Positions 19,889 through 44,415 of a stretch of DNA of 64,000 bases are shown one piece after another. Within the stretch, counting starts at the first letter, position 1. Each line of letters starts with the position of its first letter. Source of the DNA: a virus; IMG/VR virus record IMGVR_UViG_3300005096_000103, positions 1 to 64,000 of that record. The stretch is one strand, 5' to 3'. Position numbers and translations under genes: made by a program. The notes below the pieces were generated by a model, which saw only the letters and a list, made by a program, of their open reading frames with translations, ran no database searches and was not told where the DNA came from.

Positions 19889-20806
19889 TTAGGGGAAGGT
19901 CACGCGAATGACTCCGCCAACGTTGACGAAGGTCACGCCGAGTACACTGTAGGCGTAGAACTCAATCATGTCAGCTTCCTGCTTGATATGCACAGTTGCA
20001 TCTTCAAGGAGAAAGTACTTACCGAGGTACTCTTCTGGTGCGAAGATCCACATTTCATTCGCAGGGAGAATATCAGACTTGATAGTTGTGATAGCGTCAT
20101 AACCCCAGAGCTTAGTCTGGCTCTCAACGCCTTCGTCGTACAAGCGCTCAGCAACACCATCACCTACATCAACTGCATCGAAGAGGAGGAGGTCAACGAA
20201 AAGCTCCTTGGTGAGGAGGATTTTGCCTATGTTGAGTTTCTTAGAGAGGAGAGCCTTGAGACCTGCAACGAGTCCAGCCTTTGACAACGCCGCGGTACCA
20301 GCAGCGATACTCTGCGCGGGGAACGTAGTCACGATATCAAGGATGGTATCGTAGAAGTAGGTGTCTTCGGTGTCTGCCATGTCGAAGACAGAGTTGTCTT
20401 GCAGGATCTTGACGATATCCGACTTGTAGGTCATCAACTCCCACTTGTTCTTCCGCCACTTGTCTGAGGTAATTTTACCAAAGGGGCAGGAGGTTCGTGG
20501 CATGCGGATATACTTGCGGTCCGAGGTCGAAGCGAAGGGTACGAAAGTCGCGTACGACTCAGTCTCTTCTTCGACGATAATCCGTGGTGTGTCGTTGTCT
20601 ACACTCGGATCAAGCATCGAAGCATCCACATTCTGCGGAGTGAAGATCTTTCGTGCGAAGCTGTGTTGGCGGACATAGTCACGGACATAAGAGGTTACTT
20701 GTGCAGACGCCTCCTTAACATTGTCCTCGACTTTCCGCACAAAGTTAGTGTTAATTTCTTTGGCACTCACTTGTGTGGTGACCGTGCGATATGCTGGTGA
20801 CGCCAT
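19889..20806 (-). CDS. Major capsid protein (HK97 fold)
   Basis: 305 aa after protease-scaffold-decoration genes; YVRDYVRQHSFARKIFTP and YFLLEDATVHIKQEAD patterns; C-ending codons suggest high expression. Confidence 0.8.
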   Translation of the reverse strand: MASPAYRTVTTQVSAKEINTNFVRKVEDNVKEASAQVTSYVRDYVRQHSFARKIFTPQNVDASMLDPSVDNDTPRIIVEEETESYATFVPFASTSDRKYIRMPRTSCPFGKITSDKWRKNKWELMTYKSDIVKILQDNSVFDMADTEDTYFYDTILDIVTTFPAQSIAAGTAALSKAGLVAGLKALLSKKLNIGKILLTKELFVDLLLFDAVDVGDGVAERLYDEGVESQTKLWGYDAITTIKSDILPANEMWIFAPEEYLGKYFLLEDATVHIKQEADMIEFYAYSVLGVTFVNVGGVIRVTFP

Positions 20807-23412: not shown

Positions 23413-23457
23413 GAGATCTCCTGTTTAGTGAGTCGTTACAGTGTTCTATACTACCTC

Positions 23458-25497
23458 TTATAGATCTAGAGGTATAAAGTTAAAGAGTTGTTGGACTACG
23501 TACCCTAAGTCTCTATCTGCGTAGATAGACTCAGAGCTCGTGTACCTACTAGTACTACCAAAAGTCTCATATGTATTCAACCTTCCTGCGGTCTTTACAC
23601 AGTCAAGTTTTTTAAGTGCTAGAGAATCAAACCTATCTATAGCGACTAGAAGAGTTGTAACAGTTTCGGGATTAAGATACTCCGTATGTTCAGCTATTTT
23701 CCTAGAGGACATAGGTGTATTCCACGGGATCTTTTCACCGGTTACCGTCGTGATCTCCGGGCTCTTACTCTTAAGGAACCGGGACGTAAGGTATGCACCA
23801 CCTGCAGCTATAGCTACCGGGAGAGCAGCTGATAGACTACGTACAGGTGCAGAAGACCTATACTTCCCAAAAGGTAGGTAGTTAGAGCCTATAACAGCTG
23901 CACCTGTTAGACCTGCTGTGATACCTGCGCCTGTCGCCTTAGCCTTAAAATTCTTAAGTCTAGCTTCATCAGCGACATCGCGTGTAGTGACTGAGACATT
24001 CCCTCTTCGATCTCTAGTAGCCAGTGGCTTGATCCTAGAGGTATATGCGTTATCTGCACCAACTATCTTAGCAATTGTGCTACCACCCTGATTCTCGTTG
24101 AATGCCCTGTTAACTAATAGGTCCTTAAGGAGAGCACATTTCTCTCTCTGAGGATACGCAGCTGTAAGGACACTGTCTGACACAGTACTAGTGTCCAGTG
24201 AGTCTAAACCTGTTACAGCTAAGATCTCCTCAAGAAGACCGGCATTATAGGTTGCGTACTTGAGAATCTCAGACCTGGCGTCGAATAAGCTAGATGCTAT
24301 TTTAGCTGAGAAGGGAACGTCATTCTTCTTACAGGTTATCCGATAGATATCAATGAGCGTCGGGAACATGTTAATCTTAGCGAGTGAGGCTAAGACAACA
24401 CTGATGGGTTCCTGCGCGCAGGTGTTGATAAGCTTTTCAGAAAAAGGCTCCTGAGTCTCTAGAGCAGGACGCAACGACTTAACGTTATCAAAGATCATAG
24501 ATCCTGATCTATGATCCATACTTGGTAAGTCGTGTGGCGGACGTACGCCGTGGATTACACCTTGTACTATCTTCTCTATATCCGCGATCTTAAGTAGTTC
24601 ACTTCTTAGACCTGTATTACCTATATTGAAGCTAGCTGTCTTACCCATCGCGTGATGTCCACCTCCAACGGTGTTTACAGTGTAGGTACCTTCGTCCCTG
24701 CCTACGTTTTCACCGTCCGTTGACATCACTTTAAGCGCATAGCCTATACGATCTGCAGGTTTAAATATCCAAGAGATATCAAAGAGGCTAGGGCTAGGGT
24801 TCCATACAATGCAGCTGTCTCCGTTACCTAGGATTTTGCCGAGTCCGTATCGAGGGTCTGAGCCGTTAACGTGTACACAGTACTGTCGACGCGTAGGTGC
24901 ACGGTTAGCACAGACATCACAGATATCGTACTTGATACGACACCCCATAGATACTGCGGGGAACTCCCCGTCCCGTATCTTATCCATGAATGTACGTACT
25001 TTAACATTAGAGTTGTTGACGTCTAAAAGTAGTTCAACCCTCTGCATCTTTTGATTGTAGAACGCCTTACGAACGCTACCTACACTGTTACGGGGATCTT
25101 TGTTCTGGTGGTGAACAAAGTTGTGCGCCATAGTTTCAAAAGACTTGTAATGCTCAGGTAGAGTCTCTCCCCAGTCTAACTCTTTCCTCCCGTTGATATA
25201 CACAGGTCGCGAAGAGAAGCCATCCCCATTGCGGTTCGCACCATAGTAGTCTGACGCACTCATAGCTAGGACGAGTACAGTAGTGTGCCCTGGTTCTGGG
25301 TCGACCGACCTTATAAAATCCAGAGACTCTACACTAGCATACTTCTCTAATCTGACATCCCGTCTATCGATATACCTTACAATAGGCTCAGGAGTATACT
25401 GGAACTCCTTACCAAGTTCGATAGTCTTCACAAACCTTCTGTCGTCTGTGTAGAGTTGAGGACTGCCAGCTGCAAAGCTTAGCTTAGTGGTAGTCAT
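23458..25497 (-). CDS. Prohead (maturation) protease, HK97/assemblin-like, with Cys/His insertion and long C-terminal extension
   Basis: NRNGDGF, FVHHQN, FPAVSMGC (candidate nucleophile Ser), FDISWIFKPAD; CDVC...CVH insertion. Confidence 0.7.
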   Translation of the reverse strand: MTTTKLSFAAGSPQLYTDDRRFVKTIELGKEFQYTPEPIVRYIDRRDVRLEKYASVESLDFIRSVDPEPGHTTVLVLAMSASDYYGANRNGDGFSSRPVYINGRKELDWGETLPEHYKSFETMAHNFVHHQNKDPRNSVGSVRKAFYNQKMQRVELLLDVNNSNVKVRTFMDKIRDGEFPAVSMGCRIKYDICDVCANRAPTRRQYCVHVNGSDPRYGLGKILGNGDSCIVWNPSPSLFDISWIFKPADRIGYALKVMSTDGENVGRDEGTYTVNTVGGGHHAMGKTASFNIGNTGLRSELLKIADIEKIVQGVIHGVRPPHDLPSMDHRSGSMIFDNVKSLRPALETQEPFSEKLINTCAQEPISVVLASLAKINMFPTLIDIYRITCKKNDVPFSAKIASSLFDARSEILKYATYNAGLLEEILAVTGLDSLDTSTVSDSVLTAAYPQREKCALLKDLLVNRAFNENQGGSTIAKIVGADNAYTSRIKPLATRDRRGNVSVTTRDVADEARLKNFKAKATGAGITAGLTGAAVIGSNYLPFGKYRSSAPVRSLSAALPVAIAAGGAYLTSRFLKSKSPEITTVTGEKIPWNTPMSSRKIAEHTEYLNPETVTTLLVAIDRFDSLALKKLDCVKTAGRLNTYETFGSTSRYTSSESIYADRDLGYVVQQLFNFIPLDL

Positions 25498-25498
25498 T

Positions 25499-26086: not shown

Positions 26087-26094
26087 ACTAACCT

Positions 26095-26805: not shown

Positions 26806-26817
26806 TTGTAGCCTGCC

Positions 26818-27789: not shown

Positions 27790-27815
27790 ACAAGCCTCTT
27801 GGTTCTTAAGCGTTC

Positions 27816-28616
27816 TTAAGCAATGTCTTCAGGATCCAAACGGTCACGTAAGAGTGCTTGCTTCTTATCAAGCTTACTCTTCCGTAGGTCTAGGATCTTA
27901 GCTTCTAGTACAATCTTAAAGTCCTGTGATCCACTGACGTGCGCGTCCCGGATAGCGGGTAACGATTCAGCAGACCTGAGGAATAGTTTAGCAGCATTCT
28001 GCTTTTCTTGTATCTCTTTCAACGTCTTGTTAGGACACCTTGCATACGCCACGTATTGATTCGTGGCAACACGAGTCGTAGCGCGAGGGAAGTTTATCTC
28101 GTCTGTGTACTTAGCTAGCACTGCGTCTTGCTTAAGTCTAAAGGCACTAGATAGACTAGCGTTCATCTTGAGTGTGTCCCGCTCCTTAGCACTCATCCTC
28201 CTGTATGCTGCAGGAGTAGCCTTACTATTCCTAGCACAACTTTCTGCATAGGCTGCACGTTCTAGTCCGTGTGCGAATACAGAGACGTCAAAGAATACGA
28301 GACCATAGTTCGACACGAACCCCGTATCTGAGATGCTCAATGCACTAGCTATCTCAGCGTTTGTACACCCTGCGAATAACAGAGTGTGCATCTTAATTCT
28401 CTGTTGGCTGTCCATCCACAGCCTAAAGATCCTTCTGACACCTTCTGGTACAGCAGCGCCTGTTTCGCCCTGTAGAACTCTTAGTACTGCGTCCATAAAC
28501 GCATTGTCGTCTCTTAGTAGCGCAGAACCTCTACGCTCTGAAACTCTATCAAGCATCTCCTTGATCTTGTACTCAGGATCTGGGAGGCTTAAGTCTATAT
28601 TTATAGATACACTCAT
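27816..28616 (-). CDS. Hypothetical protein with HTH-like segment
   Basis: 266 aa; GCTNAEIASALSIS resembles a helix-turn-helix. Confidence 0.65.
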   Translation of the reverse strand: MSVSINIDLSLPDPEYKIKEMLDRVSERRGSALLRDDNAFMDAVLRVLQGETGAAVPEGVRRIFRLWMDSQQRIKMHTLLFAGCTNAEIASALSISDTGFVSNYGLVFFDVSVFAHGLERAAYAESCARNSKATPAAYRRMSAKERDTLKMNASLSSAFRLKQDAVLAKYTDEINFPRATTRVATNQYVAYARCPNKTLKEIQEKQNAAKLFLRSAESLPAIRDAHVSGSQDFKIVLEAKILDLRKSKLDKKQALLRDRLDPEDIA

Positions 28617-28661
28617 CTTCTTTACAGTCCAGAGTCAGCGGCTTACCCTACACTATAAACC

Positions 28662-31262: not shown

Positions 31263-31302
31263 TAAGTCCTCTACTACTGGAAGGGGGTCTAGCTAATAGT
31301 GA

Positions 31303-32337
31303 TTAGGCGTAGCGCATGTGGAGGTCACGCATATAACGCTCATGATCTGCAACGTTAGAGTTGCGGAAGTTTTCAACAGCAGCAAGCTTAACCTCTGGAG
31401 TCATACCGAGAGGCAGCTGGTTCCACACGTTAGTGTAGTAAGCCTCTGCGACTTTAGCTTCGCGATTAGGGTGTGGATACTCAGCGCCTACTACTGCACT
31501 AGCTGGAACCTTGGAACTGATTGTGGCAGACCCCGGATTAGGGAGGACTGCGTAGCCAGTAGGTTTGTTCTTCAGCTCTTGTTTGCCTTCAGCACTGTTA
31601 GTATTTTCCATCGTGTTTTGCTGTGAAGCACTACCCGAAACGATATTGGCACTAGTAGCAGGCATCCCCATCGCCATCTTCGCAAGAGCGTTGGTTACCT
31701 CGTTGAGAGGCGCTTCTGTCGGAGCAGCAGGAGCTAGAGCTGCAGCCTCAACTTCATTCTGTGCAACACCCGCAACACCTGCAGGAGCTAACGGGTGCTT
31801 AATCGTGATACCTGATCGAGCTTCCTGAGGGAGGTTCTTCACCGCCCCGCCAGGTGCCACAGCAGCATATCCGATAGGCTTTCGAGACAACTCTAAGAGT
31901 GCCTCAGCACTATTCGAGTTAGCCAGTGTGTTCTGCTGCCTGGGATCGTTGTCTACAATAGTACTGCCTAAGAGAGCTTCCTGCTCCATAGCAATCTTAA
32001 CTGGGTGGAGAATGTCTCCCATGACAAGACCAATGTCCGAGCCAAATAGCGCGGGACCTGCTCCAGCGATCTTACGACCGCCACCTTGTTCAGCAAGCGC
32101 CTTATCAATTGTAATGAGACACTCTGCAATCTTGATAACCGCTTCGTTAGATGGGCGGGAGTGCCGGTAGTCTTCCCCAACCAACGATAGAGGACCCTCG
32201 AAGTCTACAGATGCCGCAGCGTAATCAGCTGCGTCTCTGAGATTTTGGACGCTAGCAATCTTAGTGATAGATCGCTGTTGTAAGTTCTCAGCGATAGCTC
32301 GGGCAACGATTCTACGGTCAACGGGGGCATTGTACAT
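31303..32337 (-). CDS. Putative internal head protein with internal duplication (KxA-rich)
   Basis: 344 aa; 7 KxA; QQNTLANSNSAE..KPIGYA / QQNTMENTNSAE..KPTGYA. Confidence 0.8.
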   Translation of the reverse strand: MYNAPVDRRIVARAIAENLQQRSITKIASVQNLRDAADYAAASVDFEGPLSLVGEDYRHSRPSNEAVIKIAECLITIDKALAEQGGGRKIAGAGPALFGSDIGLVMGDILHPVKIAMEQEALLGSTIVDNDPRQQNTLANSNSAEALLELSRKPIGYAAVAPGGAVKNLPQEARSGITIKHPLAPAGVAGVAQNEVEAAALAPAAPTEAPLNEVTNALAKMAMGMPATSANIVSGSASQQNTMENTNSAEGKQELKNKPTGYAVLPNPGSATISSKVPASAVVGAEYPHPNREAKVAEAYYTNVWNQLPLGMTPEVKLAAVENFRNSNVADHERYMRDLHMRYA

Positions 32338-32365: not shown

Positions 32366-33535
32366 TTAAACTCTAGCTAACGCGCGGAGTCCCCCGCCAG
32401 TAAGCTTATCTACAGTGTATATTCCTTTAGTAACTTTCCTAGCCCTAGACAGTTCAGACTTCGTTTTATCTTGGTCAACCCACTTTTTAGGTTGTGGTGG
32501 TGCGTTACCAACCGACTCGTCTATAGACCTACGTATGACCGTACGTGGTGGTGGTTTTTCTGTACCCCACAACTTATCCACATACTTTAACTGTGGACCC
32601 ATCATACCTACCTGTAGTGCGCCTAGAGGGGATATAGCCGAGTTTATTAGTAGATTAGTCGCCTGTGCTCCTGCGCGTCGTACTTTCTGTCCGGTTGTGA
32701 CTCCAGGGCTTTTATCTGCCAGAGCAGAGTATACCACAGCACCTGGTAGAGCGTAGCCTAGTCCTAGATTTGCTGCTTGTCCAGCTGTCTGTAGTGTTGG
32801 AGATATCGCATACCTTGCAGCCTCGGCTATGTTTCCGCCTCTTAGAGCATTGTACGAAGCACGGAATCCTCTAGCGATGTCAGGATCTGGAGCTAGGTCG
32901 CCTGTTAAAACACCCCCTTTTCCGACAAGCCCGCCTTGTAAGAACCTCTCCTTTGTGACCTTACCAGGGCTGTAACCTAAAAATATATCTGCTGTAGTAC
33001 GCGCTTTTCCTCGTAACCCTGCCCGTCTACTTCTAAGCTGTATAAACTGCTCTGGTGTTAGGTCAATCCCCGCCTCTCTAAATTTATCTATGCCACCAGT
33101 TATGCCATCCTTACCTCTAAGTCTATTTCGGATACCAAGGGAGCCTAACGCATCACCTGACAGGATGCTATCTGACTTTACGAAGTCTAAGTTGTTACTA
33201 TCTGCAGAAAGACCGATGCTTTTATTATTAAATTTTGCACCGACAGAGTTTAGATCGCCCTTTAGTCTCCTAGCGTCAAAGAGCCCAGAGTCTATAGCAC
33301 CCCATCGAGTTGTTACTTTATTCTTAATACCCTTAACAACATCCTCACCTCCGCCGAACATTATACGTTTAAGTCCTGTGGCAGCACTCGGAGCTTTAGC
33401 GATATACTTGTAGGCTGAACTCGCATCATTAGCGAGACCCTTAGCTACGTCTACAGCTTTAGAGCCTAGTCCAGCAGTTTTATCCTGATGGATTAGACTA
33501 AGTTCAAGGAGGTGCTGATATCTATTCCCATGCAT
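32366..33535 (-). CDS. Basic Gly-rich putative ejection protein
   Basis: 389 aa; KTAG near the N-terminus; hydrophobic LGLGYALPGAVVYSAL and LINSAISPLGALQVGMMG. Confidence 0.75.
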   Translation of the reverse strand: MHGNRYQHLLELSLIHQDKTAGLGSKAVDVAKGLANDASSAYKYIAKAPSAATGLKRIMFGGGEDVVKGIKNKVTTRWGAIDSGLFDARRLKGDLNSVGAKFNNKSIGLSADSNNLDFVKSDSILSGDALGSLGIRNRLRGKDGITGGIDKFREAGIDLTPEQFIQLRSRRAGLRGKARTTADIFLGYSPGKVTKERFLQGGLVGKGGVLTGDLAPDPDIARGFRASYNALRGGNIAEAARYAISPTLQTAGQAANLGLGYALPGAVVYSALADKSPGVTTGQKVRRAGAQATNLLINSAISPLGALQVGMMGPQLKYVDKLWGTEKPPPRTVIRRSIDESVGNAPPQPKKWVDQDKTKSELSRARKVTKGIYTVDKLTGGGLRALARV

Positions 33536-33569
33536 TAATTAATATCCTCAGTACTTCCCGTCTACTATA

Positions 33570-35438
33570 CTAGTACTTTCCGTCAGTGCCACTACCAAAC
33601 TCTGCGCCATAGACGTAAGCGGGTATTGGCTCAAGTCCATGGATAGTATCGGACAGACCTGCTGCTGCAGCTTCGGTCAGACTTTTGCGTAGGTAACGAT
33701 GCTGCTGCTTCGCTAGCCACTTAGGACTGAGTAGAGGACTACGTGTCAACGGCTTTATTATCGGACGTACTCTAAGTTTACCCGTGTAGGTCTTGACTTC
33801 CGTAAGCCCTCTAGACTTTAGTCCTTCGATTATTGGACGCGTGAGTTCTGTGCCTGCGTTGAATTCATGTGTGTTTGCTCCGAGTATTGATCCCCGCAGG
33901 TCAGGGCTTAGCTTGACTTTAGCAGTCCGGGTTTCGTTTGTAAACTCCTTGTGCAGTGGTCCGTACGGTACGATGTCACCTGTAGTGTTATCCCCATATG
34001 GATCAGCCGTAACTCTGACGTAGTTAAGCTGTGACTTAGCTAGAAGCTCCGCGTGTCGCTTGTCTAAGTAGCTACCCGAGTTTTGATAGATAGACTGGAT
34101 CCCCTTAGCGATGTGAACTCTACCTGCGCCTAGTCCTTTGTAGGGTACGACGTCGTTAGGGAGAGGGACTCCTGTTGAAAGTAGGTCACCAGCATAGACA
34201 CTGTCTCCCGCTTTACGGATAGGGTCTATACCCGGTGGAACATACACTGTTCGTTGCTTACCCGAGTAGTTAACCGCTATGTTGAACCCGCCCTGTGGAG
34301 CAGAGTCTACTCTCTCAATTTTACCATTGTCAGAGGCTACTAGCGCTTTCTGTGTGAACGACTTTGGAAACTCTAAGAAGGCCTGGATACCTTTTAGACC
34401 ACGTAGACTGACGTCTTTCTTTGTTGCGATACGTACACCGTGCTTAGCGTTGAGGGCGAATTGCGTAAGGGGTTCACTAAGCGCTTGAGCACTGCGGACT
34501 CCGAGGTTAGTACCTATTGATGGGAACTGCCCACGCTCGTCGTACCCATAACATTTTTGGCACACGCCTTCCGGTAACTCACAAGTTAGTACACTGCGGA
34601 CAAGTAGCTCTCTTATGCCCTTACGCTTTAGGAGGGCGAGGTCCTGTGGCGTAATGACTTCGTTACGTCGTAAACCAGCTTTAGGTACATCCTTTGCAAC
34701 AAGTCTATCCACAGTAGAAGGTTCGTCTGACGACTCCATGACGCCATTAAATGTTCTGCAGTCGTCCTTAGCTACGACCTGTGCAGACATATTAGCAACC
34801 ATGATCTTAGCAAAAGCGCCAGGGTCTGCAACTGACTGCTTCGTTTGGACTGCAGCCCTCCTAGCTTCTGCGTTTGCTACCCAGACTTCCTCAGGTCGTA
34901 GACCCTCAGCATATGACCTAGCGATTAACCACGGAGTTACAGAGCCGTCACGCCGAGTAACAGCACCTGGAGAAGCTACCGTCTTAGACAGTTGTGCAAT
35001 AGAACCTCGACCACCAGAGTTGGCCATCATAGCCATATCAGATTTGTGAGACTTAACTGTGCCGAGTAGTGCATCCTGTGTATTAATTATGATGTTCTGG
35101 CGCTTAGTAACGTCACCTGGTAAAGTCGTTGAGAGAGGTCTCAGCTTCTTCATAGCCTTTCGAACAATAGGATCCCGCCTTGCGTAGTCAGGTGTGATGT
35201 CGTCAAGCCCTACAGAGATCCCTAGATAGGTCGCAGCTTCGTCCCCGATACTTTTTATCTTCTGTACGATACGACCATATGAACTAGGGTAGGTTTTCCC
35301 TATAAGGCTCAGCTTATCCTGGAGAACTCTCTTCGTGATAGGTTTATCAAACTTCGGGATCCCTTTGGGGATCTGCTCGTTAAATAACAGAGTCCCAAAA
35401 CTCATAGCCTTGTTATTCTTATTTTTCTTTGGTGGCAT
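33570..35438 (-). CDS. rpoC: DNA-directed RNA polymerase beta' subunit, C-terminal half
   Basis: Bridge helix (SYAEGLRPEEVWVANAEARRAAVQT), Zn site (DDC...C...VCQKCYG), trigger loop (SAQALSEPLTQFALNAKH), RGLKGIQAFLE, DKRHAELL. Confidence 0.9.
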   Translation of the reverse strand: MPPKKNKNNKAMSFGTLLFNEQIPKGIPKFDKPITKRVLQDKLSLIGKTYPSSYGRIVQKIKSIGDEAATYLGISVGLDDITPDYARRDPIVRKAMKKLRPLSTTLPGDVTKRQNIIINTQDALLGTVKSHKSDMAMMANSGGRGSIAQLSKTVASPGAVTRRDGSVTPWLIARSYAEGLRPEEVWVANAEARRAAVQTKQSVADPGAFAKIMVANMSAQVVAKDDCRTFNGVMESSDEPSTVDRLVAKDVPKAGLRRNEVITPQDLALLKRKGIRELLVRSVLTCELPEGVCQKCYGYDERGQFPSIGTNLGVRSAQALSEPLTQFALNAKHGVRIATKKDVSLRGLKGIQAFLEFPKSFTQKALVASDNGKIERVDSAPQGGFNIAVNYSGKQRTVYVPPGIDPIRKAGDSVYAGDLLSTGVPLPNDVVPYKGLGAGRVHIAKGIQSIYQNSGSYLDKRHAELLAKSQLNYVRVTADPYGDNTTGDIVPYGPLHKEFTNETRTAKVKLSPDLRGSILGANTHEFNAGTELTRPIIEGLKSRGLTEVKTYTGKLRVRPIIKPLTRSPLLSPKWLAKQQHRYLRKSLTEAAAAGLSDTIHGLEPIPAYVYGAEFGSGTDGKY

Positions 35439-35441
35439 GTG

Positions 35442-35972
35442 CTAGCCCCTGTACCCTTTGAACATAGTGTTAACGTCAGTGGATACGCCTAGAGGTACTG
35501 ATAGCGCTGATACGCCTAGCGCTCCACCCCTAACATACTTATTCTTAGCGAGTACTTTAGCTGCACCCCCTATCAGGCTACTGGCTGGTTTGCTAGCGGC
35601 TGCACCGGTGACAGCTTTACCTACACCCTTGCCTACTGTGCTAGCTACTGCCTTACCTACACCCTTACTTGCTAGCCTCCCTAAGAGCCTGCCCCCTAGA
35701 CTAAGTAGTCCCGCCATCTTAGCCCCCTGCCCTCCAAAGCCTCCGGAACCTACGTTCGAGGTGTCGATGTTATATGACTTAGCCCAGTTGACAGTCTGGG
35801 TTCCGCGGTGGCGCTTACGTCTAGCTGGTCCTGACCTAAAGCCGCGGGGGATAGCACTCTTGTCGAGCATGGACTGCTCTAACTCAGAGACGATATTAGC
35901 CTGCTTGTAGACATTGATGCCTGCTAAGCGACTAACTATAACGTTATGCAATTGAGTGTGTGCACTGCGCAT
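35442..35972 (-). CDS. Basic Gly/Ala-rich hypothetical protein between the RNAP genes
   Basis: 176 aa; start coupled to the upstream stop; KQAN, KMAG; hydrophobic C-terminus. Confidence 0.7.
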   Translation of the reverse strand: MRSAHTQLHNVIVSRLAGINVYKQANIVSELEQSMLDKSAIPRGFRSGPARRKRHRGTQTVNWAKSYNIDTSNVGSGGFGGQGAKMAGLLSLGGRLLGRLASKGVGKAVASTVGKGVGKAVTGAAASKPASSLIGGAAKVLAKNKYVRGGALGVSALSVPLGVSTDVNTMFKGYRG

Positions 35973-38900
35973 TACACGCCTCCTTTATTCCTAAGTGTGA
36001 TAGGCGTGTTAAGTGTTATCTCGTTGCGGTTGTACGCGGCTTTAGCTGCTTTAAGATCCTGGAAGATGCGCGCCTTACCTTTAGCCTGGCTCCCGGAGAA
36101 CGCCCCATACACTGCCTCGTGTTGTGGTTTAACGAGGAGGCTAGACTTCTTACCGTCTGAGAATATGAGATTAGACAAGGTCATACGCTTAGCTTCCTCT
36201 ACAGCCTTAGGCATTGAGGGGGTGTAGACCTGCATGGCATCGCCATCATAGTCTGCGTTCAAACCTTCTTCTGCAAAAGGGTTGAGCCGGATCGTCTTAC
36301 CTGGCACGGGTACAGCGTAAGCACCGATTAAGCCGAAGCGGTGTAGAGTCGGTGCTCGATTGATTAACACAGGCCTCTCTTTCAATTCGGCATTCAACTC
36401 GATCCTAGCCTCAGGTGTACGGTTATCCACCATGCCAATAGCCGCAACAGGCGCAGTACCCTTGCGGACTAGACGACGAGTTGTAAAGGGCTTGTACATT
36501 GACCAGAGCATGTCCTCTGGGATACCTACCTGGTCCAAACCAAGTGAGGGGTCAGGAGCTATGGTACCACGACCAGATAGTTGCTGTCTCTTCTTGATGA
36601 GCTTCTCGTGGAAGAACCCATACTTGGGGCTTGTCTCTCCCACGATCTGAGTCATGAAACCTTTGACACCACGTCCTAGAGTCTTAGCGTTGACAGGCGG
36701 GTTTGTTCCGAACACTGCACCAACAGCGTCGTAGAGTTGTTTGTTACTCTGTCCTGGTTCCTCCAAGGCTTTGAGTTCCTTAGGGGTGTTCTTGATAGAC
36801 TCGTTAACAAGTATAAGATCCTTATACAAGTAGTTAGGGTCAGAGATTAAAGCAGACCCGTCACTGGTTGTCACAACCGTACGCATGATAGGCGGGATAA
36901 CTGGGACCTTAGAGATGACGTACGCGTCTCCAGGTGACAAGTTCTGCTTCTTAAGAGAACCAATATACTTAAGCTGCCTCACCCACCCGTCAACTTGTGT
37001 TGCTGCGCTAGGTGATCGTATATTGATCTTCTGGGATATCTTAGCCTTTAGGGATCGCTCAAGTCCTGGGAGGTTTAGAGAGTTGAGCTTCGTCTTAACT
37101 GCAGCGCCTCCAGCTTCAGTGCTATACTTTGTGAACTCTATACCAGACATCCCTAGAAGCTCACGTGCAGGCTTTGCAAACACTGGATTCACTATAGGCT
37201 CAGCTAGTTTTATCTTAGACCACTTAGTTCCTGAGGGTCCTCCTGTAATACTGAAGTCGAATAGACCACCAGTCTCAGGGACGTACTTGGCTCCTCCGTT
37301 CTTAGAAGACTTGACCTTCATGATCCCAGCATTCTCTACTTCACGCTGGGCTAACGCATCAGTATCCTTATCTGTCATAGGCAACACACTAAAGATGTCA
37401 CCTTGCTTCTTAACGTTGATACCTCCGCCTTGCAGCATAGTCGTGTACTTGTTGAAGGCGTGAGACGTTTTGATGTCAGGGGTCGGGAGACCCAGCTGTA
37501 CCCTTCGCCAATACTCTTCGTTCTTATCTGACTTTACAGTGGAGCCCTCTTTGAGGATGGCGCGAGCGTCATGGGCTACAAGAGCCAAGAAGTCCATTGC
37601 ACCAAAGCTCTTTGCGCCCTCAGGGCCTCCACGTGTTGGCTGTCCATTAACATCAGTGGCGCCCACGCCTCGGGCTGAGAAGTTCGTCTCCGTGCTCTTG
37701 AACAGCTTGAGCATGTACTGCTGCCCTACCATTATATTAGGGATCTTCTTTCCGGTGATAGGGTCAGTGACGGTTTCCTTATCTTTGATCCCATGTTTCT
37801 TAAGCAGATCCTTTGCGAACTTGACACGATTGACGTTGTCGTAGTGAGGGAGCTGTATGACTTTACCTGTCTTCACTGCGACCTTTGAGATAGCTGTCTC
37901 GATAATCTGAGCAGGGTTGATGCGAGATACAACACCCGCGCTTGTGAGGAGCAGGTCGAGAGGCTTACCATCTTCACCCTGTGGCATCTCGTTATCTGGT
38001 ATAACTAAAGACACGACACCTTTGTTACCATATCGCCCAGCTAACTTATCCCCAACGCCCATAGGCTCAAGGGTTAACACTGTAACTTTGATAGAGCGAG
38101 GTGTGACCCTCACATCTTTAACAGTACCTTCGTGTTTATGTTCCCAGAGTATAGAAGCATCCCTGTAGGGTCTGACAAGACCTCGACTGAGGTTACCGAG
38201 AATCTCGTCCTCTGTTGACCTTACAACTTTCTTCACTGCTACAATGAGAAGTTCACCGGGCTTAATCTTTGAGCCGACTTTAGGTGCGCCACTCCTATCA
38301 ATGTTGTTGTACTCAGCAGCAGTAAACTTACCTCCGAAGTAAGTACGGTGTTTGTCTACCCCAGGTTCTATATTAGCAGTGATACTCAGCGAGTGCCTAT
38401 ACATGTGCTCGCTGGTCAGCTTATTCTTAGATGCACCCTCTGAGATAATTAGAGCATCATTAGAGTTGTAGCCCTTCCACGCCATGTAGGCTACCTTAAG
38501 ATTTGTCCCGCCCGCGTATCGACCGTCCTTAGTGAAGTTAGAATCAGCGAGGAAAGCACCCTTCTTAACCTTGTCACCCTTTGCAACGTTGACGCTATGG
38601 TCAAGCCTTGTCTTAGATGCGAAGGGGAAGTTCCTCGCATAAGGGACCTTGAACACCGAACCGTTGTTATCCTTTATATGTATCGTGTCTGTCTTCGTAT
38701 CTATTTTGCTGATAGTACCAGCGACAGGAGACTTAGGGAGGTGGATAGTCCCGAAGACATCCTCCATTGACTCCCCTGTCTTAGTGTTCCCCTGCACCTG
38801 AACCCAAGGTACTTCCCTGTTAACTAGCGGCAGCGATTGAGTCACTTGCTTCGCGCCCATGATAGCGCGATTCCCTTGCATTCCATTGATCCCCGGTACG

Positions 38901-40513
38901 ATATTCGTAGAAGGTGAATACATCGCTGCAGTACTCGGGACTTGATAGTCTACCTGGTTGCGAGAGACATTCTTAATCGTATCCCCAAACAAGACAGGCA
39001 CTTTGTTCTTTGTGATATCTGTCGTAGGGAAGGCAACGTTCTTCTTTGTAAAGTCTAAGACGTTGACGTACTCAAGCTTCTTCGTCTTTACGTTCTTTAG
39101 CAGTGAGAACATATCCCCTTCGTCGTTCACCGCCCCGTACGCTGTAACTCGAAGGTCTACACCTACACCCCCTGACTCAGGGGTACGGACAGGATCTAAG
39201 ATACCCAGGTGAGTTCCGTGCTGGTCCCGTGTTGAGTCTGGGACAGATCTGAGAGACGAGATACCCCCCTCCCCTAGAGATGTGACCTTGACCGCAGAGT
39301 CTAGGATCTCGATAGGGTTAATCTGTGACGGATTACTGGAGAGTGAGCTTGTAGTAATCAGTGTCTTAAGCGGACGACTGAAAGGGGTCGGAGGCATGAT
39401 ACTTTTAATTGTAGGATCTGCTGTACCATTGAGCTTGAACTTAACCTTAGACTGAAAAGCTCTACCCGCGTTCTTACTGATCCTCTCCCCAAAGAAAGTG
39501 TCTACAGTGTGTAGTGTCTTGAACTCTAGAGAGTCACGATCATCCTCAGGCTCAACTTTGTTATAAACCCTTAAGATCTTCTTGCTTGCAATCAAAAGAG
39601 CCTTGACGCTAACCCTGTCAAACTCCTGACCTAACGTAGTCTTTGTTACACGCTTGTGTAATACAGTGTTCTCGTACGCCTTAGCGATCTCACGTGCCAT
39701 ATCCTTGAGCGTAGGACTTGCCGTTCTATCTGACTCTTTAACGATCTTAAGATAGAGCTTACGTAGATTAGCCTGGGTATTCTTATTCGCCTTGCGATTA
39801 ACATCAACTAGCTTAGCACCCCACGCTTTCTTTACGTCAGCGGGTGATACCCCTAGCGTCTCCAATACAGGGTATAAAGGTATCTTAGTTGAGTCGTACT
39901 GTAAGTAGAACACGCCAGTCTCTGGAACCATAAAGATTCTAAAGTTACGCCCACGACCCAGGTTGAAGTTAGCTTCCAGGTCACCGTTGTTGCGTGTACG
40001 AGTGTAGACGCCAGGCTTAATACGCAGCTGATTTGACAGCGAGTACTCTGTGCCCTTTACCGTGAAGGTATGCCGAGGTGTCATCCAAGGAAGCTGCGCT
40101 ACAGTCTTCTTCTGCTTATCAACAACCTTTCCAGTCTTATTGTTGCGTATGATGAGCGTAGCACTCACCCGCTCGTTAAGAGACTTACCTACAAGGATAG
40201 CTTCTTTCTGTTCCTTTAACGTAAAGTCTTTCTTCTCTACGCTGATATCCTTCACTTCGAGGGAGAACTTCGTACCCTCCACAGGCATCGTCTTTGCGAG
40301 CGCTGCAACAGTCTGCTGCCTTATCCGCTCCCGCCTCTCTTCTGCAGAGGAGAGTACCCGATGCAACCCTTTGAGGTACCCCGTCTTCAACGTGTACGGC
40401 GTATCATCTCCCTCAGGATCCACCCCCGCAAGCTCTGCTGCCGAGGTAGGTTCCAGAGTATCCTCTTGCGAGTCAGCGCCATCTATCGCGAACCCACTTT
40501 CTTTATTAGCCAT
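35972..40513 (-). CDS. rpoB-rpoC: DNA-directed RNA polymerase: beta fused to the catalytic N-terminal half of beta'
   Basis: beta motifs TFTVKGTEYSLSNQL, GTHLGILDPVRTPES, GDKLAGRYGNKG, YMLKL, TVKSD; beta' motifs PVIPPIMR, KRQQLSGR, NRAPTLHR, NADYDGD (36239-36259); GGAGGT SD supports a start at 40513 (ORF track start 40585). Confidence 0.93.
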   Translation of the reverse strand: MANKESGFAIDGADSQEDTLEPTSAAELAGVDPEGDDTPYTLKTGYLKGLHRVLSSAEERRERIRQQTVAALAKTMPVEGTKFSLEVKDISVEKKDFTLKEQKEAILVGKSLNERVSATLIIRNNKTGKVVDKQKKTVAQLPWMTPRHTFTVKGTEYSLSNQLRIKPGVYTRTRNNGDLEANFNLGRGRNFRIFMVPETGVFYLQYDSTKIPLYPVLETLGVSPADVKKAWGAKLVDVNRKANKNTQANLRKLYLKIVKESDRTASPTLKDMAREIAKAYENTVLHKRVTKTTLGQEFDRVSVKALLIASKKILRVYNKVEPEDDRDSLEFKTLHTVDTFFGERISKNAGRAFQSKVKFKLNGTADPTIKSIMPPTPFSRPLKTLITTSSLSSNPSQINPIEILDSAVKVTSLGEGGISSLRSVPDSTRDQHGTHLGILDPVRTPESGGVGVDLRVTAYGAVNDEGDMFSLLKNVKTKKLEYVNVLDFTKKNVAFPTTDITKNKVPVLFGDTIKNVSRNQVDYQVPSTAAMYSPSTNIVPGINGMQGNRAIMGAKQVTQSLPLVNREVPWVQVQGNTKTGESMEDVFGTIHLPKSPVAGTISKIDTKTDTIHIKDNNGSVFKVPYARNFPFASKTRLDHSVNVAKGDKVKKGAFLADSNFTKDGRYAGGTNLKVAYMAWKGYNSNDALIISEGASKNKLTSEHMYRHSLSITANIEPGVDKHRTYFGGKFTAAEYNNIDRSGAPKVGSKIKPGELLIVAVKKVVRSTEDEILGNLSRGLVRPYRDASILWEHKHEGTVKDVRVTPRSIKVTVLTLEPMGVGDKLAGRYGNKGVVSLVIPDNEMPQGEDGKPLDLLLTSAGVVSRINPAQIIETAISKVAVKTGKVIQLPHYDNVNRVKFAKDLLKKHGIKDKETVTDPITGKKIPNIMVGQQYMLKLFKSTETNFSARGVGATDVNGQPTRGGPEGAKSFGAMDFLALVAHDARAILKEGSTVKSDKNEEYWRRVQLGLPTPDIKTSHAFNKYTTMLQGGGINVKKQGDIFSVLPMTDKDTDALAQREVENAGIMKVKSSKNGGAKYVPETGGLFDFSITGGPSGTKWSKIKLAEPIVNPVFAKPARELLGMSGIEFTKYSTEAGGAAVKTKLNSLNLPGLERSLKAKISQKINIRSPSAATQVDGWVRQLKYIGSLKKQNLSPGDAYVISKVPVIPPIMRTVVTTSDGSALISDPNYLYKDLILVNESIKNTPKELKALEEPGQSNKQLYDAVGAVFGTNPPVNAKTLGRGVKGFMTQIVGETSPKYGFFHEKLIKKRQQLSGRGTIAPDPSLGLDQVGIPEDMLWSMYKPFTTRRLVRKGTAPVAAIGMVDNRTPEARIELNAELKERPVLINRAPTLHRFGLIGAYAVPVPGKTIRLNPFAEEGLNADYDGDAMQVYTPSMPKAVEEAKRMTLSNLIFSDGKKSSLLVKPQHEAVYGAFSGSQAKGKARIFQDLKAAKAAYNRNEITLNTPITLRNKGGV

Positions 40514-40585
40514 AGCGTACACCTCCCCTCGGGAGACTACTCTAGTTCCGTCCGGTCGTAAATGCCCTGCATAAACGTGCCTCAT

Positions 40586-40602
40586 AAATTGGTATAAGAT
40601 AG
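40586..40602 (+). promoter_or_regulatory. Candidate promoter motif AAATTGGTATAAGATAG
   Basis: Matches the motifs at 1666 and 40891. Confidence 0.4.
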
Positions 40603-40681
40603 TAACTAAGATTCGTAGATCTAATCACTAAGCACGCAATAAGGCGTACTAGGTGAAGAGGTCGAAACTTTGGGAGTACGC

Positions 40682-40804
40682 ATGCGTACCAGAAACATCA
40701 TCGCGATCCTTATGATCGCTGCCGCACTAGTAGCGGGTGAGAGAAGTTCTCTCCCTGTTCGGTGCGGCGTTCCTACCACTTCGTCCATCGGGTCGAAGTG
40801 GTAG
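40682..40804 (+). CDS. Possible 40-aa peptide with signal-like N-terminus
   Basis: GGGAG SD; MRTRNIIAILMIAAALVAG...; its 3' half overlaps a strong hairpin. Confidence 0.3.
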   Translation: MRTRNIIAILMIAAALVAGERSSLPVRCGVPTTSSIGSKW

Positions 40805-40815
40805 GAAGAGAGAAC
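40746..40815. other. Strong stem-loop
   Basis: TTCCTACCACTTCG (40770-40783) / CGAAGTGGTAGGAA (40794-40807) perfect 14 bp; outer GTTCTCTC/GAGAGAAC. Confidence 0.8.
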
Positions 40816-40890
40816 CCAAATGGATTCTCTTTTGTTTAGTAAAACATACACCTCTTAACCTCACCCTCTAAGACCAAAAACAACCCCTAT

Positions 40891-40906
40891 TAATTGGTAA
40901 AAGATA
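40891..40906 (+). promoter_or_regulatory. Candidate promoter motif TAATTGGTAAAAGATA
   Basis: One mismatch to the 40586 motif; ~90 nt upstream of the histone-like gene. Confidence 0.35.
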
Positions 40907-40994
40907 TTAACAATAGAATACTAGCTTGCTTGAATTCAATGCACAATATGGTGTGTTGGGTATTAGAGTGAGCGCCATAGTCCTTGGAGGGATT

Positions 40995-41333
40995 ATGTTT
41001 GGTTTCGGAAGAAAGAAGAACAGTCGCCGTGAGTTGGTTAACGTTTGTTGCGCTGTGATCGGAGGCCTCGCAGCCTCCGTCGTGGCTGGTTCGAGTATCG
41101 TCGGAGTAGGGGTCGCGAAAGCGGCTCTCGCCCCCTCGGGGGTGGCGGAGAGGACGGTAGTCCAGGTCCGCACAGTGAAGAAGTTGGCAAAGGTGATGGA
41201 GAAGGAGGAGAAGAAGGCGGCCAAGGCCAAGGCCAAGGCGCGTGCCAAGAAGCTTCAGGCGAAGTCGGCGAAGAAGGGAAAGAAGATCCGCAACGCCAAG
41301 CTCGACCAGTTGCTGGAGGCTTTCGCCGCGTAA
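40995..41333 (+). CDS. Basic protein with hydrophobic N-terminal helix and histone H1-like Lys/Ala-rich tail
   Basis: GGAGG SD and ATG at 40995; KKAAKAKAKARAKKLQAKSAKKGKK; ~62% GC (hand count). Confidence 0.75.
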   Translation: MFGFGRKKNSRRELVNVCCAVIGGLAASVVAGSSIVGVGVAKAALAPSGVAERTVVQVRTVKKLAKVMEKEEKKAAKAKAKARAKKLQAKSAKKGKKIRNAKLDQLLEAFAA

Positions 41334-41347
41334 GCGGTGAGAGTCGG

Positions 41348-41382
41348 AGAAAGGACCTACTTATTGTGGGTCCTTTCTTTTT
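41348..41382 (+). terminator. Rho-independent terminator
   Basis: AGAAAGGACCTAC-TTATT-GTGGGTCCTTTCT followed by a T run. Confidence 0.8.
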
Positions 41383-41499
41383 GCTTAGAGGCAGCAAGCT
41401 TAACAGCTAAGGAGGTACACGCTAAAGATAGCTCATTCTTTAGGTAGGTTATACTGCTCTTAGGTAGGATATCTTACTGGGTTCGTGCGGAGTTTTGTG

Positions 41500-41877
41500 A
41501 TGTCGAGTGGTGAAGTGTCAAGTGGTAGAATGTCGGGTAAAGGTAAGTCTGGGTTTACTTTGGTTAAGCCTCTTGTTAAGCCTCTTGCGGTAAAGAAAGG
41601 AAAGAAGAAGAGACGCAAGGAGTTTAAGAAGTATACAAAGAAACTCAAGTCGAATGACTCTGAGGGGATCTTAGCTGCGTTTACGCGCGGTGCGGAGGAT
41701 CATGGAATTGAATGGGCACTGCTTGGACTCGCGGTCTTGGCAATACCTGTTGGAGTTGCAATCCTTGCTGAGTACTCGTCAAGCCGCAGGTCTACGAGTG
41801 TAGACTGGGCTAAGCTTGTTGAGCTTATATCCCCTGTTATCCTGAAAGCGTTTAGGACAGTGCTCAGGATGCACTAG
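41500..41877 (+). CDS. Lys-rich membrane protein
   Basis: KKGKKKRRKEFKK followed by the TM helix WALLGLAVLAIPVGVAILA; start 41500 (GGAG SD) or 41530. Confidence 0.6.
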   Translation: MSSGEVSSGRMSGKGKSGFTLVKPLVKPLAVKKGKKKRRKEFKKYTKKLKSNDSEGILAAFTRGAEDHGIEWALLGLAVLAIPVGVAILAEYSSSRRSTSVDWAKLVELISPVILKAFRTVLRMH

Positions 41878-41987
41878 AGTCGAAGACTGTAGAGTGTAGA
41901 CTTACAACTAACACACGAACACAATGACACACAGACATAATAGCATACGAACATAATAGCATACTAACATACGCACATACGAACAGA

Positions 41988-42614
41988 CTAAGGCAGCGGG
42001 TCAATAGGCTCATCACCCTCTTGGCTTGCTGCCTCACTTAGACTCAGTGCCGCCTCACTTAAATTAGTGGCAGCTTCGTGTATATTTACTGAGCTTTTTT
42101 TATTTGCTAGTGTAGATGTTGAAGGAGCTGAAGGTATAGTTTCCCACCAGGCTAGAAGAACGAGGAAGTTACCGTCCCGATCTGTAGAGAACCGCTCGTG
42201 TAGTAGACCAGCCTTATCCGATCTAATCTTGCGGAAGATGTGTTCCATCTTACTGCTGTAGACGTGAGATTCGTCAGCGATTGTATACTGCTGGTAGAAG
42301 AACTTAACGTCCTCTCCTTCGAACATAAGATCGGCTGGTGATCTCCCCGCAGATAAGGGCGAACTACCAAAACCCTCTGTGTCTGAACCGTCAGCCCCCT
42401 GTGCTGCTTTCTTAGCTGCAGCAACGCGGGTGCGTCCGTCCTGGGCATCAATGATGTTCTGCCTGTGCCCAGCAGGTGTAAAGGCTGGTACGCCGTAGTT
42501 CGGATCCTCTTCCTCCCCTTCAAAGATGTTTCCGTCAGTACGCTTGAACTCAGCGTTATACATATCGACTCCACTAAAGGCGTCGAAGATTGGATTACCG
42601 GTGTTGGATGTCAT
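41988..42614 (-). CDS. Hypothetical protein
   Basis: 208 aa, AGGAG SD, directly downstream of the portal. Confidence 0.7.
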   Translation of the reverse strand: MTSNTGNPIFDAFSGVDMYNAEFKRTDGNIFEGEEEDPNYGVPAFTPAGHRQNIIDAQDGRTRVAAAKKAAQGADGSDTEGFGSSPLSAGRSPADLMFEGEDVKFFYQQYTIADESHVYSSKMEHIFRKIRSDKAGLLHERFSTDRDGNFLVLLAWWETIPSAPSTSTLANKKSSVNIHEAATNLSEAALSLSEAASQEGDEPIDPLP

Positions 42615-42651: not shown

Positions 42652-44415
42652 TTACTGTGCCTGTGCTTGTGCTTGACCTTGCTGTCCCTTATTCTGATCT
42701 AGTATCATACGGACTACAGCGTAGAGAACCATATCTTCATTCTGTAGAGCGGCCATCTGCGTACGGCGTTCTTCGTAGGGCATAGGAGCAATCTGCTGTG
42801 CGATGCCTTCAGCCTGTGCGTAGACGGCTTGTTGGTCGTAGCCGAGACCAGAGCCGTCGTTAGCAGCTGCGTCAGCTTGAGCTGCAGTAGCGAGGGATTG
42901 TTCAATCTCAGACATCTTGTTCTGTAAGAGGTTTTCCATTCGCTTCTCAGCGAGTTCATCTTCCATCATGCGATCGCGTTCCTTATCGATGTCACGTCCG
43001 AACATCTCAGCTATGGATCGGTTAGACAGGTGGTTAGACGTCTGGGCAACGTTAACCTCTAAAGACTTCTGCTGGACGTCGTCAATGAACTTGAATGGGG
43101 TCATGTCGATACTAACAGTCTCCCACTTCATACACTTGGCTGACTGCTCTCCTATCCAGTTAAGCGCGCGGACAAGGTCTATACGCTCAGGTTCCAGTGT
43201 ATTTTCGAGCATACGGAGTGTGGCGCTAGAACCTGTCCACGAGAGACCTCCGTAGATAAACTCTTTGAACAGTCCGATAGAAGCAATGATATCCTCTTCA
43301 GCTTGTTGGATTTCACCGAGCGTCATAAGTGCTCGGCCTTGACCTCCTATCTGTGTAACGCCCACGCCTACTGGAGCGATGTGTACATGCAGAGGATCAT
43401 GACGGTGCTGCCTAAATGCTTTAGATAAGCGACTCGCCCACTTAGCGCCGTTCAACGTTGAGATAGGGTTAGCAGCGTTATTAGTTTGTTGTGGGAACAG
43501 AACCCTGAGAGGTACGATGTACCCTTGTGCAATAGCCTCGTTAGCCCTACGTAGTACAGCCGCGTAGTAGTGCTTCTTTAAAGACGCCGCAAGCTTCGGT
43601 AACCCAAGCGCTCCCTCAATACCAGAAGGCGCAGGGTTCTTAAGGTGCAGGATGTTGTCCTTAGGGAGCAGGAAGGAGTCTTTGGGACGGGACACCGTCT
43701 TAAGAAACTCTGCAGGCATGTTTGTGATGAACAACGGGTTAGAAGCTTTGATAGCCTCCCTTGTGATCTGGGGGATTTTGTACCAGAACTTCTGCTCCCC
43801 TGTGATGTAGTTCTCTTCGATGTCAATAAGCTTTATGTCCCAGCGTATAACTCGGATAGCTGACATACGACTTCTAGGCTTGTCAATGAAGTCGTCAATG
43901 TGGACTTTGTGACGCTTACCACATGCTGTCGTCGGGCAGGTGAAATCTACGATACAACTCTGCCAGTGGTACTTAAAGTCTTCCTGATCTGCGTTAGCGA
44001 GGAAGACCATTGTATCGCAACCTGTACAAAAATACATACGGTCTATCGCTTGGTTGACGCTAAGGACAACATTTCCGTAGATACTCTTGTCGAGCTGGAT
44101 AGCTTTGAGCAGTCCGCGAATATGCAGATGATCATCGAAGAGTGTTTTGTACTTTGTTTTGAGGTCTGTCTTGACAGTGTCGAACACAACGTCTGTAATG
44201 ACGTAGTCAGCTTGCTTCTGCAGACCGATATAGATATTGGAGTTGTTGAAGTATAAGTACTCACACCACCTGAACATGTCCTTGAGAGACCGAGGCATAA
44301 AGCCGCTCAAAAAGTCGAACATAGGGTTAGGGAGACCACGACGATAATTGAACATATCGGTAGTCTTTGTTCCTGCACCAGCAGAGGACATCCCGCTCGA
44401 CATATTAAACCTCAC
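42652..44415 (-). CDS. Portal protein
   Basis: 587 aa; YGNVVLSV, ILHLKNP...GLPKLAASLK, IGGQGRAL patterns typical of portals; Q/A-rich tail; CTGC/CPTTAC insertion. Confidence 0.7.
   Translation of the reverse strand: MRFNMSSGMSSAGAGTKTTDMFNYRRGLPNPMFDFLSGFMPRSLKDMFRWCEYLYFNNSNIYIGLQKQADYVITDVVFDTVKTDLKTKYKTLFDDHLHIRGLLKAIQLDKSIYGNVVLSVNQAIDRMYFCTGCDTMVFLANADQEDFKYHWQSCIVDFTCPTTACGKRHKVHIDDFIDKPRSRMSAIRVIRWDIKLIDIEENYITGEQKFWYKIPQITREAIKASNPLFITNMPAEFLKTVSRPKDSFLLPKDNILHLKNPAPSGIEGALGLPKLAASLKKHYYAAVLRRANEAIAQGYIVPLRVLFPQQTNNAANPISTLNGAKWASRLSKAFRQHRHDPLHVHIAPVGVGVTQIGGQGRALMTLGEIQQAEEDIIASIGLFKEFIYGGLSWTGSSATLRMLENTLEPERIDLVRALNWIGEQSAKCMKWETVSIDMTPFKFIDDVQQKSLEVNVAQTSNHLSNRSIAEMFGRDIDKERDRMMEDELAEKRMENLLQNKMSEIEQSLATAAQADAAANDGSGLGYDQQAVYAQAEGIAQQIAPMPYEERRTQMAALQNEDMVLYAVVRMILDQNKGQQGQAQAQAQ

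Follow-up and report, generated by a model that had tools for sequence, protein, structure and literature searches.

RNA polymerases (RNAPs) delivered by the virion are known from N4, phiKZ-like and crAss-like phages, and to our knowledge all of these enzymes are far from the cellular one. The RNAPs of phiKZ and AR9 consist of 4-5 chains, are far more divergent, have no sigma factor and come in two sets, and the reviews of jumbo-phage RNAPs cover the phiKZ type alone (PMC7824862). In the paper on Salmonella phage Arash the RNAP chains are named 'beta' and 'beta-prime', their fusion and split being left undescribed (PMC10585845), and the RNAP genes of Vibrio phage D69 are publicly annotated as hypothetical. 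Here we analyse an RNAP locus in a stretch of 64,000 nucleotides of viral DNA (positions 1 to 64,000 of the IMG/VR record IMGVR_UViG_3300005096_000103, hereafter the window; the whole record is a contig of 138,359 bp with a 91-bp direct terminal repeat). This locus encodes the phage's own and only bacterial-type RNAP core, made of two chains, and we consider it probable that the enzyme is packaged with the head contents and ejected with the DNA for early transcription. Literature searches found no paper describing this architecture.

Three adjoining open reading frames (ORFs) of the minus strand occupy positions 33570-40585: 35972-40585 (1537 amino acids, aa), 35442-35972 (176 aa) and 33570-35438 (622 aa). 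The first of them, chain 1, holds the full beta subunit and beta-prime up to about E. coli residue 575, including the Mg-binding motif NADYDGD, and the third, chain 2, holds the remainder of beta-prime. Chain 1 matches the Pfam families Rpb2_6 (E 6e-54) and Rpb1_2 (E 4e-22), and chain 2 matches Rpb1_5 (E 2e-11). When the sequences of the PDB are searched, chain 1 finds bacterial beta over its residues ~119-1084 (E 6e-67) and the N-terminal half of beta-prime over its residues ~1106-1534 (E 2e-39), and chain 2 finds Thermus beta-prime 888-1386 (E 1.5e-37). Once chain 1 is aligned with E. coli RpoB and RpoC, the final conserved motif of beta falls at residues 1053-1059 (window ~37400) and the first conserved segment of beta-prime about six residues further on; as so few residues separate the conserved segments, the two subunits are joined essentially without a linker. 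A preliminary description, made from the sequence alone, had seen a single ORF crossing from beta into beta-prime near 37400 and stopping about 90 aa after the catalytic motif, with the bridge helix and the trigger loop on a second gene. Both statements hold: 88 aa follow NADYDGD, and the two elements are on the 622-aa chain, as the Thermus match and the alignment indicate.

The alignments show that the lysines of the beta motif GDK...GNKG, the Mg triad, the trigger-loop His, the flap-tip helix and the clamp helices are all retained. The zinc-binding domain of beta-prime (Cys4 segment, E. coli ~70-88) is missing from this enzyme and from every family member that was aligned. The RNAP families of jumbo phages in PHROG give weak matches, with E from 1e-5 to 1e-23 against 6e-67 for bacterial beta, which supports the earlier impression that this RNAP is much closer to the cellular enzyme than to those families. 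The positions of E. coli beta which contact rifampicin, Q513, F514, D516, H526, R529 and S531, are S, N, S, S, K and T in this beta, and most of the six are replaced in the aligned relatives as well. Mutations at 516, 526 and 531 are known to make the E. coli enzyme resistant. Because the key residues of the pocket are replaced, these three included, the phage enzyme is probably insensitive to rifampicin.

For chain 1 an in-frame ATG at 40585 would give a protein of 1537 aa. We favour the ATG at 40513 (1513 aa) as the likely true start, because a Shine-Dalgarno sequence, GGGGAGG, lies 8 nt upstream of it and because it agrees with the 1513-aa version found in the databases. The stop codon of the chain 1 gene overlaps the ATG of the middle gene (TAATG), this ATG being preceded by AAAGGAGG, and 3 nt separate the stop of the middle gene from the ATG of chain 2. 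At 33550-33584 the end of the chain 2 gene, GGA AAG TAC TAG, is repeated directly after as GGG AAG TAC TGA; this short tandem copy agrees with a separate early remark on gene-end duplications across the genome.

One could object that the fusion and the split come from faulty assembly, from a frameshift error or from gene decay, the source being a single metagenomic contig. We regard this as practically out of the question: the identical junction and stop position recur across dozens of contigs obtained independently and in four isolates whose genomes are sequenced, the catalytic motifs are intact, and the contig bears its direct terminal repeat. A word-indexed search returned more than 1000 proteins of ~1450-2000 aa with both beta and beta-prime Pfam domains, on contigs of up to 196 kb, and a scan of IMG/VR confirmed 387 relatives. 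We fetched 80 of the relatives; 78 include the junction, and all 78 cross it in a single high-scoring segment pair, most of the fetched relatives ending 0-55 residues past the point where chain 1 stops. The separate C-terminal part of beta-prime (beta-prime-C) is a protein of ~600 aa, and 50 of the 52 distinct C-termini of the fetched loci share one end position, just behind a conserved Gly-x-(Tyr/Phe). The order portal, fusion gene, gap, beta-prime-C, head genes is kept in 20 IMG/VR loci, and the same layout exists in Salmonella phage Arash (gp206 and gp216) and in Vibrio phages D69, D148 and D181. An assembly error, which the preliminary description had named as what would undo it, is thus contradicted by 78 relatives and four isolates. 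The enzyme is hence not a unique object: it adds one more member to a large Arash-like family whose RNAP has two chains, is associated with sigma and lacks alpha.

Some relatives depart from this plan in detail. In many of them (P0018, P0026, P0071, P0074 and P0084) the fusion gene has acquired additional domains or mobile elements (inteins or LAGLIDADG endonucleases, a GNAT acetyltransferase, PF18823, a pyrophosphatase), and a homing endonuclease gene interrupts the fusion gene of Vibrio phages D181 and D148. In loci L085, L086, L089 and L100-L102 the ORF with the end of the N-terminal half of beta-prime (beta-prime-N) is just ~390 aa long, so that the fusion may be broken once more, or carry an insert, near its residue 1151. 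A group of records labelled as phages (H5-H18; Staphylococcus, Listeria, Enterococcus, Acinetobacter MD-2021a) shows an ordinary bacterial rpoB-rpoC pair beside ribosomal protein genes, and these records look like host contamination.

We then consider where beta-prime is broken and how this state may have arisen. Chain 1 extends to about residue 575 of E. coli beta-prime, and chain 2, after a short basic tail, starts at about 578-590. The cyanobacterial gamma chain (625 aa) has only reached its residue 562 where chain 1 ends, and residue 14 of Synechocystis rpoC2 aligns with residue 34 of chain 2; from these alignments the phage break is placed ~20-60 residues upstream of the cyanobacterial split. 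The preliminary description, which put the break close to the rpoC1/rpoC2 split, was therefore right as to the exposed region, not as to the exact position. The fully fused relatives read straight through the loop where beta-prime is broken here. Among the 150 nearest beta-prime-C representatives, 109 consist of beta-prime-C only, 29 are single chains (beta, beta-prime-N and C together), 7 are extended at the C-terminus and 5 join beta-prime-N to C. For the region that comprises beta and beta-prime-N, trees were built with four bacterial sequences as the root (FastTree on 72 rows, IQ-TREE with LG+G4 on 38 rows). The phage family is monophyletic in both (support 100), the fully fused forms make a basal grade and the split forms are nested within it, with values of 97-99 in the Shimodaira-Hasegawa-like approximate likelihood ratio test; the outgroups are few, the tool flagged compositional bias and LG+G4 is not a site-heterogeneous model. 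Since bacteria have an unsplit beta-prime and the fully fused forms are basal in the rooted trees, the split of beta-prime appears to be the derived state. The lineage would have begun as a single-chain fusion of beta and beta-prime of ~2000 aa; beta-prime would later have been broken once, at a surface loop, and the gap would since have been filled by variable small genes.

The gene which occupies this gap here encodes a protein with an isoelectric point of 11.4 and 28% Gly+Ala, without any match in Pfam or PHROG, so that the first impression of an unrelated basic gene between the two chains was correct. A search with phmmer against ~100 related loci found no homologue of this 176-aa protein, and a profile of the other small-gene family seen in this slot ('DPLDR..WG.P.NLAGGD') gives no match to it. 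In the nearest relative, with an RNAP 76% identical to ours, this position is taken by a homologue of 39% identity, so that the gene is real but fast-evolving. The slot spans 0.5-5.7 kb in more distant relatives and holds another small Gly-rich family, ferritin-like genes or ORFs of ~500 aa, and in Arash genes of the opposite strand. We found no evidence for a role of the 176-aa protein as an RNAP subunit.

It had also been stated that no alpha, omega or sigma gene is visible, and this is true of the 64-kb window. For alpha and omega it is true of the whole 138-kb genome, where the profiles PF01000, PF01193 and PF01192 have no match while the controls are positive; for sigma it fails outside the window. 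A sigma70-like gene of 368 aa lies at 80235-81341 of the genome (L026:16235-17341); its product is 42% identical to Arash gp10, matches Pfam Sigma70_r3 with 29.5 bits, over the cut-off, and finds RpoS chains (E 4e-6). It was detected solely through Arash gp10 and Sigma70_r3, the Pfam searches of the genome for regions 2 and 4 of Sigma70 giving nothing, or a match below threshold at 135.9 kb. The second sigma factor of Arash, gp196, has no homologue in this genome. A scan for sigma70-type promoters and terminators around the RNAP genes gave fewer sites than in shuffled sequence. The sigma70-like protein carries an N-terminal extension of ~125 aa with K-x-A motifs, which Arash gp10 is missing, and its gene adjoins a VanY-type peptidase gene within a structural block. 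No second RNAP set was found in the genome; there is one set only.

The RNAP genes were said to lie inside the virion operon. They and the slot gene are tightly coupled to one another, and the comparison with Arash places them inside the head-gene cluster, between the portal gene and the genes of the prohead protease and the capsid (Table 1). The order obtained from this comparison is portal, fusion, slot gene, beta-prime-C, orphan genes, protease/scaffold-like gene, capsid and tail genes, and the succession of portal and RNAP is shared by relatives. In 7 of the 150 nearest beta-prime-C clusters, which are the closest ones (43-47% identity), beta-prime-C is extended by ~340-470 residues homologous to the product of 32366-33535. 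A K-Y-A spans the exact place of the native end of beta-prime-C in five of these seven, and likewise in both sequences with an extension that the fetched loci contain. The 389-aa protein itself found only clusters of viral hypothetical proteins in a search of the protein atlas, with a poor model (predicted local distance difference test 0.45), and both orphan partners, of 176 and 389 aa, look largely disordered. In several orphans of the head module within 21430-32337, K-x-A is strongly over-represented, as a separate early remark had it: it takes 12 of the 24 Lys in the product of 26818-27789 (p 1e-6) and 9 of the 10 Lys in that of 22606-23412 (p 6e-6). If K-x-A is the site of the head protease, cleavage would reduce the extended proteins of the relatives to the form that our phage encodes, and this would place beta-prime-C inside the prohead. 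Mass spectrometry of Arash virions detected gp206, the fusion, at the top of all proteins (3516 spectra), ahead of the capsid protein, together with gp216 (1210 spectra) and the sigma factor gp10, abundant and fully covered (PMC10585845). Taken together, our analysis makes delivery of this RNAP by the virion likely. The packaged RNAP suspected from the start is thus plausible, given the Arash virions and the K-Y-A junctions in relatives; the presence of both chains in virions is known for Arash alone.

Under this reading, the covalent link between beta and beta-prime would replace the role of alpha and omega in assembly, and the enzyme would work with the sigma factor of the phage. It would be synthesized together with the head proteins, enter the capsid along with the internal proteins of the K-x-A type and be ejected with the DNA, after which it would start early transcription independently of the host RNAP. 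As the sole RNAP encoded in the genome, it probably serves later transcription too.

Several observations weigh against packaging or against the scheme as a whole. K-x-A is at chance in chain 1 (12 observed, 10.6 expected) and is missing from chain 2 (0 against 4.4), in line with the early remark that both chains lack clear sites; as there is no enrichment in either, neither chain carries an obvious processing or targeting signal. That K-x-A is the head protease site is itself something we infer. The Arash virion preparation yielded 116 proteins, ribonucleotide reductases among them, and its authors allow for carry-over of proteins abundant in infection (PMC10585845); the case for packaging leans on Arash, whose RNAP is just 35% identical. 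A k-mer enrichment over 58 upstream regions gave no shared promoter motif. In the core itself E813 of beta (E. coli numbering) is Asn, and in the trees one fully fused sequence with a long branch (P0199) falls inside the split clade. The acidic pair E813-D814 (window 38480-38490) has become N-D here and in several relatives, whereas Arash keeps E-D.

Some of these points fit an alternative in which the two-chain RNAP is functional and acts solely in the infected cell, at middle or late times, its position among the head genes being accidental and the Arash signal being due to carry-over. The metabolic enzymes among the 116 proteins and the ordinary K-x-A content of both chains agree with it, and with a single RNAP set in the genome work inside the cell is needed anyway; besides, ~1.4 kb with small ORFs of the opposite strand and a hairpin stand between the portal-side genes and the fusion gene. 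Yet carry-over sits badly with gp206 being the most detected protein of the Arash virion, above the capsid protein, with gp216 and sigma gp10 abundant too, and an accidental position sits badly with a portal-to-protease placement conserved across the family and with the K-Y-A by which relatives attach a head-module protein to the native end of beta-prime-C. We therefore hold this alternative to be less likely and keep to the packaged and ejected enzyme as the probable one. Within the 1.4-kb interval (40600-41990) the small ORFs of the plus strand encode hydrophobic products, a strong hairpin lies near 41350-41380, and a repeat of short period, rich in GT, lies near 41910-41990.

Table 1. Features of the RNAP locus and of the neighbouring head genes, in positions of the window.
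Feature	Position	Strand	Evidence or remark
Portal protein	42652..44415	-	Found by tblastn with Arash gp204 (E 1e-76); marks the head-gene cluster on its upstream side
RNAP chain 1, in-frame fusion of beta and beta-prime N-half	35972..40513	-	1513 aa; Pfam Rpb2_6 and Rpb1_2 on one ORF; matches bacterial beta and beta-prime chains
Beta portion of chain 1	37406..40513	-	To residue ~1060 (1537-aa numbering); alignment with E. coli RpoB and family members
Beta rifampicin pocket, substituted	39263-39352	-	Alignment with E. coli RpoB
Beta flap-tip helix	38180-38215	-	Alignment with E. coli RpoB
Beta active-site lysines GDK...GNKG	38018-38053	-	Alignment with E. coli RpoB
Beta/beta-prime junction	~37388-37429	-	Motif GGGINV-KKQGD at residues 1053-1063, window 37397-37429
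Beta-prime N-half of chain 1	35975..37405	-	Alignment; C-terminal end at ~E. coli beta-prime residue 575
Site of deleted beta-prime zinc-binding domain	37196-37270	-	Alignment
Beta-prime clamp helices	36803-36844	-	Alignment
Catalytic NADYDGD	36239-36259	-	Residues 1443-1449; 88 residues from there to the chain end
Basic Gly/Ala-rich orphan gene, 176 aa	35442..35972	-	In the slot between the RNAP genes; coupled in translation to each
RNAP chain 2, beta-prime C-half	33570..35438	-	622 aa; bridge helix and trigger loop; ends in conserved G-K-Y
Bridge helix, chain 2	34797-34907	-	Alignment
Trigger loop, chain 2	34440-34502	-	Alignment; conserved His
Head-module protein, 389 aa	32366..33535	-	Fused to the beta-prime-C C-terminus in closest relatives (Rosetta-stone link); K-T-A-G at residue 19
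Prohead protease/scaffold-like gene	23458..25497	-	Matches the head maturation protease of PHROG (E 8e-6); homologous to Arash gp222 (E 1.5e-32)
Major capsid protein	19889..20806	-	Arash gp226 homologue, E 1e-54; weak Pfam Phage_capsid_4 match

A broader picture may be proposed, tentatively. The family could be a large and largely undescribed lineage whose minimal RNAP, free of alpha and omega and using sigma, derives from a chain of ~2000 aa; the cut site and the C-terminus of beta-prime would have become docking points for head cargo which the prohead protease releases at K-x-A, and the ejected polymerase would make infection independent of the host RNAP and of rifampicin. The bacterial core of the family can still be aligned with ease, and a sigma-like factor is kept while alpha, omega and the zinc domain of beta-prime are not; the family offers in this respect a natural minimal version of the bacterial RNAP, and in addition displays a clear history of fusion followed by split. 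Its cultured members, Arash and Vibrio D69, put biochemistry, structure determination and tests with rifampicin within reach.

Among the known systems, the lineage of multisubunit-RNAP-encoding Caudovirales (mReC; Weinheimer and Aylward 2020) was the one named in the preliminary description, and it does share with our phage bacterial-like, deep-branching beta and beta-prime in tailed phages (PMC7481178). Both enzymes belong to tailed phages of environmental metagenomes and are detectable with cellular profiles, and some of our relatives come from the same metagenomes (such as 3300014204, 3300017991 and 3300009149). However, in the available part of that paper the entries of the mReC table all have a separate beta (~1000-1500 aa) and a full-length beta-prime (887-1391 aa), none pairs a beta of ~1500 aa with a beta-prime of ~600 aa, the non-mReC table likewise has no such pairs, and neither fusion nor split is mentioned for these phages (PMC7481178). 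The paper gives as hallmarks a capsid of PF07068/VOG11186 and a terminase of PF03237/VOG01069 (PMC7481178); of these the two Pfam families were searched, and they have no match at E <= 0.01 in our genome, whose capsid is without PF07068, and whose terminase is without PF03237 and has a weak match to GpA_ATPase. Six metagenome identifiers of related contigs are absent from the mReC entries and are found only as non-mReC reference rows, and a second IMG/VR scan aimed at mReC sequences returned the fused family only. Membership in mReC, as far as the available part of the paper describes that lineage, is thus not supported and seems to us very improbable; with its fused and split chains and its other capsid and terminase families, the present family constitutes a second, architecturally distinct lineage of bacterial-like phage RNAPs next to mReC.

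The rpoC1 (gamma) and rpoC2 chains of cyanobacteria and plastids resemble the phage enzyme in that the break of beta-prime separates the catalytic domain from the bridge helix and falls in the same region of the surface. The gamma chain continues 63 residues beyond the end of chain 1, the split being of independent origin, and the cyanobacterial enzyme, unlike that of the phage, keeps separate beta, alpha and omega. In Helicobacter and Wolbachia, rpoB and rpoC are fused, the C-terminus of beta being joined to the N-terminus of beta-prime as in chain 1; those fusions are cellular, their beta-prime is unsplit, the zinc domain is kept and alpha and omega are still used. The RNAPs of phiKZ and AR9 are, like this one, phage multisubunit enzymes without alpha and omega and with a split beta-prime, and one of their sets is packaged and ejected for early transcription. 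Here there are one set, two chains, a whole beta and a sigma70-like gene, and the PHROG matches to their families are weak. We rejected an assignment to the phiKZ type, given the single set, the unsplit beta and the presence of a sigma-like gene.

The fully fused enzymes of uncultured phages (P0151, 2074 aa, and loci L103-L106) are homologous to ours over the whole length (33% identity), and they share its junction and its deletion of the zinc domain. They differ in their unsplit beta-prime, and, as they form the basal grade of the rooted trees, they look ancestral. The closest known relatives are Salmonella phage Arash (OQ632216) and Vibrio phages D69, D148 and D181. In Arash, gp206 is the same fusion of beta and beta-prime-N (35% identity over 95% of the length) and gp216 is the separate beta-prime-C; Arash and the three Vibrio phages also share the deleted zinc-binding domain, the place between portal and protease/capsid and a homologous sigma-like gene. 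The two RNAP genes of Arash are 4.7 kb apart, with genes of the opposite strand between them, whereas here one coupled gene of 176 aa separates them; Arash has the second sigma factor gp196, which is without homologue here; and the genome of our phage is of 138 kb, against 181-187 kb in the Arash and Vibrio relatives.

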